A stretch of DNA of 7,008 nucleotides from an archaeon (GTDB lineage Archaea; Asgardarchaeota; Thorarchaeia; Thorarchaeales; Thorarchaeaceae), in contig JAJRZD010000083.1 of assembly GCA_024275415.1 (NCBI GenBank), positions 1 to 7,008 on the forward strand, written 5' to 3'. Within the stretch, counting starts at the first letter, position 1. The number at the start of each line of letters is the position of its first letter. This document shows, piece by piece, positions 1,886-2,818 of the stretch. Position numbers and translations under genes: made by a program. The notes below the pieces were generated by a model. That model ran no database searches. It was not told the DNA's origin and saw nothing but the letters and a program-made list of their open reading frames with translations.

Positions 1886-2818
1886 ATGCCAAAGGCCATG
1901 TTTGCAATCTGGTGGGATGACGCTCTTGGACCCTTGGTAGGACGAGTATGGCCTGAGGATGTCAGTATCACCAGTGAAGAAGCGATAACTATCTTCATGG
2001 GTCATGGTACGAAGATGGAGTCTCAGATAGGGTACACGAAGATTCCACAAGGTCTCATCGTTTCTTATATGAACCCTCCAAATTGTATTGCCGTGCTCCT
2101 TGAGGACGAGGAAGACCCTGCGACCATAGAACGGAATCTGCTGAGAATCGTCCCAACAATCGATTTCTCTTCTTCTGAATGGGATTCCGAGATCAAGAAG
2201 GCATATACCGGACTCGTAGAGGTCATCAAAGAAACTTCGGGGGACAGACTGCTAAGCACACCCGGTATCCGACAGATGATTCAGGACATGTACGAAGGAA
2301 GGCTTCCGGTTATCAAGCCCCGTCACATCCTTGTGTCTGTTGACAGGTACCCTGAAGCAGCAAACTATCTAGGACAAGACCACGCAGAGGTCAAACGCAT
2401 ACTGAAGGATCTCGAATCAGAAGGAATATTAATTCCTAGGACGTTCGGCCGACGAATTGAATGCCGCCAATGCGGTAGCAGTGAAACGAAGATTACTCTT
2501 CAATGTCCCAATTGTTCCTCTGAGGATTTGTACAATGTATATGCGGTGTATTGTCCCTTATGTAGTGGACAGTTCCACACTGTAATAGTAGACGAGATAT
2601 CGGAGGTCACCTGTCAGAAGTGCAAACAGCCTGTCAGTGTTTCCAAGCTAGCAGTCCTGGATGTTGAGCCTCTATGCAATGGATGTGGTACGGCATCTGA
2701 GGAGCCCAAGATAGTCCTTACCTGTGCAGTCTGCGGAAAGCACCTGAAAGGAGCAGACCTGCTTGCCGGGACTGGGCTTGCCTATATTCCACTGAAAACA
2801 AAAAATAATGGCAACTGA
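1886..2818 (+). CDS. Fusion protein: uDENN/NPR2-type longin-like domain, wHTH and multi-zinc-ribbon TackOD1-like domain (310 aa)
   Basis: N-terminus 'AMFAIWWDDALGPLVGRVWPED' fits the F/W-D-x3-G-P-x6-P start of uDENN/NPR2-type longins. 'EAANYLGQDHAEVKRILKDLESEGILIPR' is wHTH-like. Six CxxC motifs (C193, C207, C223, C243, C264, C280) and a terminal Tyr strand match the TackOD1 (thaumarchaeal output domain 1) layout. GGAG RBS at 1873-1876. Confidence 0.8.
   Translation: MPKAMFAIWWDDALGPLVGRVWPEDVSITSEEAITIFMGHGTKMESQIGYTKIPQGLIVSYMNPPNCIAVLLEDEEDPATIERNLLRIVPTIDFSSSEWDSEIKKAYTGLVEVIKETSGDRLLSTPGIRQMIQDMYEGRLPVIKPRHILVSVDRYPEAANYLGQDHAEVKRILKDLESEGILIPRTFGRRIECRQCGSSETKITLQCPNCSSEDLYNVYAVYCPLCSGQFHTVIVDEISEVTCQKCKQPVSVSKLAVLDVEPLCNGCGTASEEPKIVLTCAVCGKHLKGADLLAGTGLAYIPLKTKNNGN

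Follow-up and report, generated by a model that had tools for sequence, protein, structure and literature searches.

The TackOD1 domain was defined by five CxxC motifs and one HxxC motif and has been described alone or in the architectures REC-TackOD1 and REC-wHTH-TackOD1, where REC is the receiver domain of two-component systems and wHTH a winged helix-turn-helix; it was published as an output domain, and its describers called its function obscure (PMC5847659). A full-text literature search found TackOD1 named solely in this defining paper. As for longins, the asCOG classification includes 'NPRL2-like longin domain' among its standard categories (PMC9834061), and section 10 and Fig. 5c of Liu et al. 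(bioRxiv 10.1101/2020.10.19.343400) report Asgard NPRL2-like longins fused to two-component-related domains. Here we describe an archaeal gene whose 310-residue product joins a predicted longin domain, closest in structure to NPRL2, to a C-terminal TackOD1 module. The gene lies in a stretch of 7,008 nucleotides, hereafter the window, of contig JAJRZD010000083.1 (assembly GCA_024275415.1; Asgardarchaeota, Thorarchaeaceae). The original prediction, made from the letters of the window, had read it as a longin-like input domain of the uDENN/NPR2 type followed by a TackOD1-like zinc-ribbon output. The coordinates of all features are collected in Table 1.

A homologue search covering 5.8 billion proteins returned 157 homologues of the fusion protein (E ≤ 1e-3), nearly all of about 304-311 residues with full-length alignments. 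Where source names were given they were mostly Candidatus Thorarchaeota, and some entries were already annotated as 'TackOD1 domain-containing metal-binding protein'. Within the order, 25 of 31 genomes carry an orthologue, one copy each. In a conservation alignment of 35 sequences sharing 52-73% identity with the window protein, the twelve cysteines of the six CxxC pairs are without exception invariant, as are G19, R20, P23, M38, H40, G41, P65, C67, E82, R83 and N84 of the N-terminal domain (N-domain); across the wider family, W10, G15, P23, H40 and L85 of this domain do not vary. Since the twelve cysteines are retained at such a level of identity, the CxxC pattern is due to selection and not to chance, and, judging from its sequence conservation, the fusion gene is real and under selection.

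The AlphaFold2 model of the N-domain, computed with a family alignment as input, has a predicted local distance difference test score (pLDDT) of 89.8 and a predicted template modelling score (pTM) of 0.78. Its topology, β-β-α-β-β-β-α-α, is the longin order, with strands at residues 4-11, 15-22, 48-53, 56-63 and 66-71 and helices at 30-38, 78-91 and 99-117 as assigned by DSSP. When the model was compared by VIA-align with a library of 48,161 solved chains, 27 chains reached Z ≥ 8, and a longin or roadblock domain was found in 50 of the 50 listed rows. The best matches were 8adl_S, identified as yeast Npr2 (Z 10.2, root-mean-square deviation 2.9 Å, 115 residues), and 8fw5_B, identified as human NPRL2 (Z 10.1), followed by AP-3 mu (10.0), the Lokiarchaeal longin 8yqg (9.9), VAMP7 (9.6), DENND1A (9.2) and FLCN-FNIP2 (9.1); the longins of DENND1A and DENND10 are among the tied matches with Z 8.0-9.2. 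The same ranking was obtained with the full-length model, all matches falling on the longin domain. Similarly, the top three Foldseek matches of the N-domain are GATOR1 chains (best E about 2e-3, probability 1.0), and its longin matches have probabilities of 0.99-1.00 with E-values of only 2e-3 to 4e-2. In a shape search of the ESM-Atlas, the closest eukaryotic clusters are Npr2/NPRL2, with template modelling (TM) scores of 0.67-0.69 over residues 1-140, and the neighbours include longin domains of Asgard longin-Arf GTPase fusions at similar scores (TM 0.62-0.70); feature matches in the same resource score 0.81 only and serve as leads, no more.

Collectively, the modelled N-domain is a longin and not a receiver domain. 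A REC or other non-longin fold, which the original prediction had named as the case against itself, is excluded by this topology: the elements do not follow the alternating (βα)5 order of a receiver, and the domain has no Response_reg match at E ≤ 1. The longin assignment proposed for residues 1-115 is thus borne out by the topology and by the three structural searches. For the proposed uDENN/NPR2 subtype the outcome is mixed, in that Npr2 and NPRL2 rank first but AP mu, VAMP7 and Lokiarchaeal longins follow within 1 Z and no NPR2 or uDENN model of Pfam matches; 'NPR2-like' is accordingly the best structural label for the modelled domain, one not statistically separable from other longins within that 1 Z. 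A finer resemblance concerns the first hairpin. Residues 5-25 of the fusion protein read MFAIWWDDALGPLVGRVWPED, exactly as the original prediction had quoted, and the start of human NPRL2 that it cited is likewise exact, corresponding to NPRL2 residues 10-30. The L-G-P-x6-P-E-D motif of the NPRL2 hairpin is present in the fusion family, where conservation of L14, G15, P16 and P23 reaches 90% or more, up to invariance. The five-residue offset between the two motifs agrees with the register of the structural alignment, since VIA-align pairs the range 1..117 of the model with 6..158 of NPRL2, model residue 1 being aligned with NPRL2 residue 6.

At the sequence level, residues 1-140 belong to no Pfam or NCBIfam family, either in the window protein or in 31 family members. 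No DENN-family model of Pfam matches these proteins, and the longin is followed by TackOD1, not by a core DENN/dDENN region. The NPRL2-specific C-terminal domains are not present after the longin either, the C-terminal half being TackOD1. When searched exhaustively by phmmer, the N-domain has eight matches, one of which, a 2586-residue cadherin-repeat protein, is spurious. Prediction of a longin homodimer (two copies of residues 1-125, with alignment) scored 0.01 and gave no answer, speaking neither for nor against dimerisation.

The C-terminal half matches Pfam TackOD1 (PF18551) well above its cut-off, in keeping with the original prediction, and a profile search at the genome level returned the same coordinates. 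Its front part is a wHTH-like segment, likewise anticipated, which appears in the AlphaFold2 model as helix-helix-strand; its Pfam HTH_Crp_2 match is weak (E 0.14). Further on, all six predicted CxxC motifs were located, and from their sequence they are inferred to form three Cys4 zinc ribbons. When the window protein is aligned with canonical Asgard TackOD1 proteins, six of six ligand pairs correspond column for column. The third pair is C-P-x-C in the Thorarchaeal family and E-H-x-x-C in canonical TackOD1, so that the proposed replacement of HxxC by CxxC at this site holds, as does the stated pattern of five CxxC and one HxxC when set against the published definition (PMC5847659). Cysteine is also found at the third site in the fusion of another Asgard family (f19). 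A basic patch composed of R185, R189, R190 and R194 is conserved in the wHTH-like/zinc-ribbon region. The family mean net charge is nevertheless -1.8 for the wHTH-like segment and -5.2 for the zinc-ribbon segment, and such neutral to acidic values speak against generic DNA binding. Foldseek rows for N-domains of MCM proteins and for CprK were disregarded, their probabilities being just 0.1-0.2.

The distribution of the two domains was surveyed in 151 Asgard genomes from 52 genera. The N-domain family is Asgard-wide, with one to seven copies per genome in 109 genomes and 38 genera; the majority of copies are proteins of about 360-390 residues in which the longin is followed by wHTH-like repeats, and three such paralogues occur in the window's own genome. 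TackOD1 was detected in 55 of the 151 genomes. Both domains share one reading frame in 21 of 26 genomes of the window's own family (f1), in addition to the window's genome, and again in the families f2, f12 and f19. The survey that the original prediction had suggested therefore shows the same fusion recurring in three separate Asgard groups, f1/f2, f12 and f19. The f12 fusion has 305 residues and is related to the N-domain with an hhalign probability of 95.5%, and the f19 fusion has about 470 residues and carries a canonical TackOD1 scoring 111 bits. Other partners of TackOD1 in Asgard genomes are an Lrp/AsnC regulator, coiled coils and another N-terminal domain. Apart from these fusions, one 451-residue TackOD1 protein (L023, G060:C3:24400-26300) begins with about 140 residues, MVLYGIWLIDANSGLLL..., that look Roadblock/longin-type and are unrelated in sequence to the N-domain described here (hhalign probability 0.6%). 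It may represent a second, independent longin/roadblock-TackOD1 fusion.

Several of these genes lie close to small GTPase genes. In f12, the longin-TackOD1 gene (L032:7652-8569) is preceded, at a distance of 32 bp and in the same orientation, by a Ras-family GTPase gene (L032:7086-7619; 159 bits), and an orthologue of this GTPase (75-78% identity) is directly upstream in two further genomes, that is, in three of the six genomes of the genus; in the remaining three, the GTPase and fusion genes are on different contigs or at contig ends. Since genomes of this genus carry about 17-21 Ras-like genes in approximately 2.5 Mb, a chance adjacency of GTPase and longin-TackOD1 genes is unlikely. In f19, a Ras GTPase gene is found 1.7 kb upstream of the longin-TackOD1 gene, and a Gtr1/RagA-like GTPase, a TackOD1-AsnC gene and two KaiC-like ATPases are encoded within 10 kb. 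One of the N-domain paralogues in the window's genome (longin plus wHTH repeats, 368 residues) lies 3 bp upstream of a longin-Arf GTPase fusion gene. These gene neighbourhoods support a GTPase link for the f12 and f19 families, not directly for the window gene.

Two loci deserve a separate description. In another Asgard family, signalling genes are densely packed at one locus (L031, G038:C1:3329000-3346000). Encoded there are a Gtr1/RagA-like GTPase extended at its C terminus, a fusion of TackOD1 to Lrp/AsnC, a pair of KaiC-like ATPases, a GTPase of the Ras-like type, an unknown open reading frame (ORF) and a longin-TackOD1 protein of about 470 residues, after which come proteins of 326 and 960 residues that belong to no known family. 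A second N-domain paralogue of the window's genome (L009) precedes a gene for a secreted or surface-type protein.

In the window's family, the fusion gene belongs to a conserved cluster. By tblastn of the window proteins against seven other f1 loci from at least six genera, a common core of four genes was found in all seven: the fusion gene, a membrane protein with a helix-hairpin-helix (HhH) tail on the opposite strand, a longin-wHTH protein and a second longin. The membrane protein has an unusual composition, a polytopic protein bearing a DNA-binding-type motif. A comparison of the N-domain profile with the two downstream longin-like ORFs by hhalign detected no sequence relation, and in relatives (L001, L002) these two genes are followed by a ParA/CbiA-type ATPase gene. 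The fusion genes of f2, f12 and f19 lack the neighbours of this cluster.

Within the cluster of the window, the fusion gene is followed after 44 bp by mtd. This gene is an optional insert, the four-gene core being kept with or without it: of the 15 genomes having both genes, 12 (7 genera) carry mtd immediately after the fusion gene and in the same orientation, while the fusion gene is kept in 10 genomes in which mtd was not detected. In all, 31 genomes of the order were searched and mtd was not detected in 15, suggesting that this enzyme of the tetrahydromethanopterin (H4MPT) branch has been patchily retained in the lineage. The upstream flank, composed of a cysteine peptidase gene 1.2 kb upstream of the fusion gene and a 313-residue ORF, is not conserved among the seven other f1 loci. 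The f12 longin-TackOD1 gene likewise has a C39_2/BtrH_N protein encoded some 6 kb away (L032:14423-15907, minus strand); the presence of a C39-type peptidase near both fusion genes may be a coincidence. A scan of the window for bacterial-type promoters and terminators was uninformative for an archaeon.

Table 1. Features of the window and of one related locus in the same genome; residues are those of the fusion protein.
Feature	Positions	Strand	Basis or remark
Fusion coding sequence, 310 residues, ATG start	1886-2818	+	ORF listing, translation; longin, linker helices, wHTH-like segment, three zinc ribbons (inferred)
Predicted NPRL2-like longin domain, residues 1-118	1886-2239	+	AlphaFold2 model, VIA-align, Foldseek, ESM-Atlas
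Linker, two short helices, residues 119-147	2240-2326	+	DSSP on models
wHTH-like segment, residues 148-190	2327-2455	+	DSSP helices 156-162 and 166-178, strand 182-190; front part of TackOD1 match
Pfam TackOD1 (PF18551), residues 151-295, profile positions 35-181 of 188	2336-2770	+	56.7 bits, cut-off 32
Six CxxC pairs, residues 191-300 (193/196, 207/210, 223/226, 243/246, 264/267, 280/283)	2456-2785	+	Alignments
mtd, F420-dependent methylene-H4MPT dehydrogenase	2863-3723	+	Pfam MTD 371 bits, NCBIfam equivalog
570-residue polytopic membrane protein, C-terminal cytoplasmic helix-hairpin-helix	3733-5445	-	HHH_5 38.9 bits, RadA N-terminus-like
296-residue longin-like protein with wHTH-like repeats	5448-6338	+	Sub-threshold Pfam Longin, Intu_longin_1 and HTH; 7/7 loci
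Second longin-like protein, runs off the 3' end of the window	6417-7007	+	Fuz_longin_1 E 3.6e-5, below cut-off; 7/7 loci
Stand-alone 175-residue C39-like cysteine peptidase	120-647	+	Peptidase_C39_2, 47 bits
313-residue ORF	664-1605	+	No Pfam or NCBIfam match, no counterpart in 7 related loci
Longin-Arf-like GTPase and N-domain paralogue genes, contig C28	L008:2-820 and 823-1929	-	Arf 69 bits

We tentatively propose, as a reading that could well be correct, that the fusion protein is a cytoplasmic signalling adaptor in which the longin reads a small GTPase or a longin partner and TackOD1 contacts a target. The longin domain would act as the input, with either a small GTPase or a further longin/roadblock protein as its docking partner, in a manner analogous to the longin platforms of eukaryotes and to MglB-type systems. 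The state of the partner would then be relayed to the TackOD1 module, whose target is likelier to be a protein than bulk DNA, given the neutral to acidic character of its segments. In such a scheme the fusion would be the GTPase-world counterpart of the REC-TackOD1 regulators of TACK archaea, with a longin instead of the phospho-receiver and the same output. That the longin occupies the position of REC in the published REC-TackOD1 architectures counts for this input/output assignment. Further points in favour of the adaptor are the recurrence of the fusion in separate Asgard groups and the GTPase genes near the f12 and f19 fusions and near the N-domain paralogue. In its own family, the protein probably acts with the HhH-tailed membrane protein and the two other longin proteins, as the retention of the four-gene cluster in all seven other f1 loci would indicate. 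A broader scenario, possible but rather doubtful, is that an Asgard small-GTPase switch, read by an NPRL2-like longin, took over the input role of the phospho-receiver for TackOD1. The Ras-like GTPase and longin-TackOD1 genes would then constitute a two-gene cassette, and the Thorarchaeal version would work in a membrane-associated multi-longin complex. If true, this cassette would be a direct junction of eukaryote-type GTPase/longin regulation with prokaryotic two-component-type outputs.

Several observations weigh against the adaptor proposal. Pfam models of the longin, NPR2 and uDENN types match none of the 31 family members at E ≤ 10, a profile search of Protein Data Bank sequences with the N-domain yields no longin, and Pfam NPR2 (PF06218) is silent across the whole genome, as it is equally in prokaryotic controls. 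Since no such sequence model matches, the homology to GTPase-regulating longins is carried by the fold alone, and longins also serve GTPase-unrelated roles, for instance in SNAREs and adaptor subunits. Moreover, no small GTPase gene is present in the window or in the conserved Thorarchaeal cluster, or within 8 kb on either side in a closed Thorarchaeal genome (L001). A GTPase gene lies 4 kb from the fusion gene in L002 but is not conserved, and no GTPase neighbour is found at the longin-TackOD1 loci P0124/P0135 or at Odinarchaeal loci of the N-domain family. The adjacency is known from other lineages and from a paralogue, and the proposed GTPase coupling of the window protein is circumstantial. 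Finally, the direction of signalling, from longin to TackOD1, is assumed from the domain order alone, and at one locus (L017) TackOD1 lies N-terminal to a complete Lrp/AsnC regulator, a position more typical of a sensor.

This last arrangement would suit a reversed direction of signalling, in which the cysteine-rich TackOD1 is a redox or metal sensor and the longin an effector, for instance a GTPase-activating protein (GAP) or a guanine nucleotide exchange factor, acting on a GTPase or another partner. The twelve invariant cysteines and the interchange of His and Cys at the third site between lineages are consistent with sensing, and NPRL2 itself is a GAP subunit for Rag GTPases. However, no equivalent could be assigned in the longin domain to the catalytic arginine finger of NPRL2 (Arg78), regular CxxC pairs in β-hairpins are typical of structural zinc ribbons, and in the published response regulators TackOD1 stands after REC, in the output position (PMC5847659). 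We consider the reversed direction very unlikely. The same domain order could instead describe a DNA-binding transcription regulator whose wHTH and zinc ribbons bind an operator, while the longin dimerises or senses a ligand or partner; its targets would be mtd, the HhH membrane protein and the longin genes. The helix-helix-wing arrangement of residues 148-190, the conserved arginine patch and the frequent adjacency of mtd all fit such a function, as do the published REC-wHTH-TackOD1 regulators (PMC5847659) and the fusion of TackOD1 to an Lrp/AsnC regulator. In that fusion, though, the AsnC HTH already supplies DNA binding, so that TackOD1 need not; the net charge of both segments points away from DNA, no HTH family exceeds its Pfam threshold, and the gene persists where mtd was not detected. 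On balance, a regulator of this kind appears improbable.

The conserved cluster admits yet another explanation, which involves no GTPase. The protein could have a structural role, as one subunit of a multi-longin complex that assembles on the HhH-tailed membrane protein, where the three longins of the cluster would pair through their β-sheets, as in NPRL2-NPRL3 and Mon1-Ccz1, and would regulate or localise the membrane protein. The persistence of the four genes in the window and in the seven other f1 loci, whether or not mtd is inserted, speaks for such a complex, and longin domains characteristically homo- or heterodimerise (PMC10933270). On the other hand, the cluster is limited to one family, so that shared ancestry could explain the synteny, the fusion genes of the other families occur without these neighbours, and the fusion longin has no detectable sequence relation to the two downstream longins. 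We consider such a structural role unlikely, to much the same degree as the transcription regulator.

The adaptor proposal matters because Asgard archaea possess dozens of small GTPases and longin/roadblock proteins, almost none with a known partner or output, and operon context rarely pairs the two (PMC10933270). Longin-TackOD1 proteins offer a concrete handle, in that their longin and their metal-dependent output module are both defined. The f12 lineage, with its Ras-like GTPase immediately upstream, supplies a specific GTPase/longin pair open to testing. If this pair interacts, it would show a pre-eukaryotic use of GATOR1-like longin platforms and give the first functional clue for TackOD1.

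Among described systems, the fusion resembles the NPRL2-like proteins of Liu et al. It fits their NPRL2-like longin of Thor- and Lokiarchaeal metagenome-assembled genomes joined to a domain of the two-component world, as far as the text of section 10 describes it, and the paralogues of about 360-390 residues with wHTH repeats likewise fit the 'NPRL2-like' family of that section. The architecture is less new than had been assumed, since fusions of this general type are already described there, though that text does not name TackOD1, nor does it mention the four-gene cluster, the His-to-Cys change or the Ras-GTPase adjacency. These last three details, the adjacency being that of a sister lineage, appear to be new. 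With the REC-TackOD1 and REC-wHTH-TackOD1 regulators of Thaumarchaeota/TACK (Galperin et al. 2018, PMC5847659), the protein shares the wHTH-like lead-in and the six ligand pairs with the same spacing, but it has a longin and no receiver, and its third pair is CxxC instead of HxxC. The first ~34 positions of the TackOD1 profile are unmatched, and the score of 57 bits is far below the 80-135 bits of other Asgard TackOD1 proteins. Npr2/NPRL2 of GATOR1/SEACIT (8adl_S, 8fw5_B) provides the best structural match of the longin and has the L-G-P-x6-P-E-D hairpin in common with it, whereas identity is only about 10%, the Pfam NPR2 model is unmatched and TackOD1 stands in place of the NPRL2-specific C-terminal domains. 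Finally, the Asgard longin-Arf/Rag-like GTPase fusions (PMC10933270) have a similar longin fold, and in them longins and small GTPases are wired together within one protein. There the longin is joined to the GTPase itself; in the fusion described here a zinc-ribbon module takes that place, and a GTPase partner, if any, would come from a separate gene.

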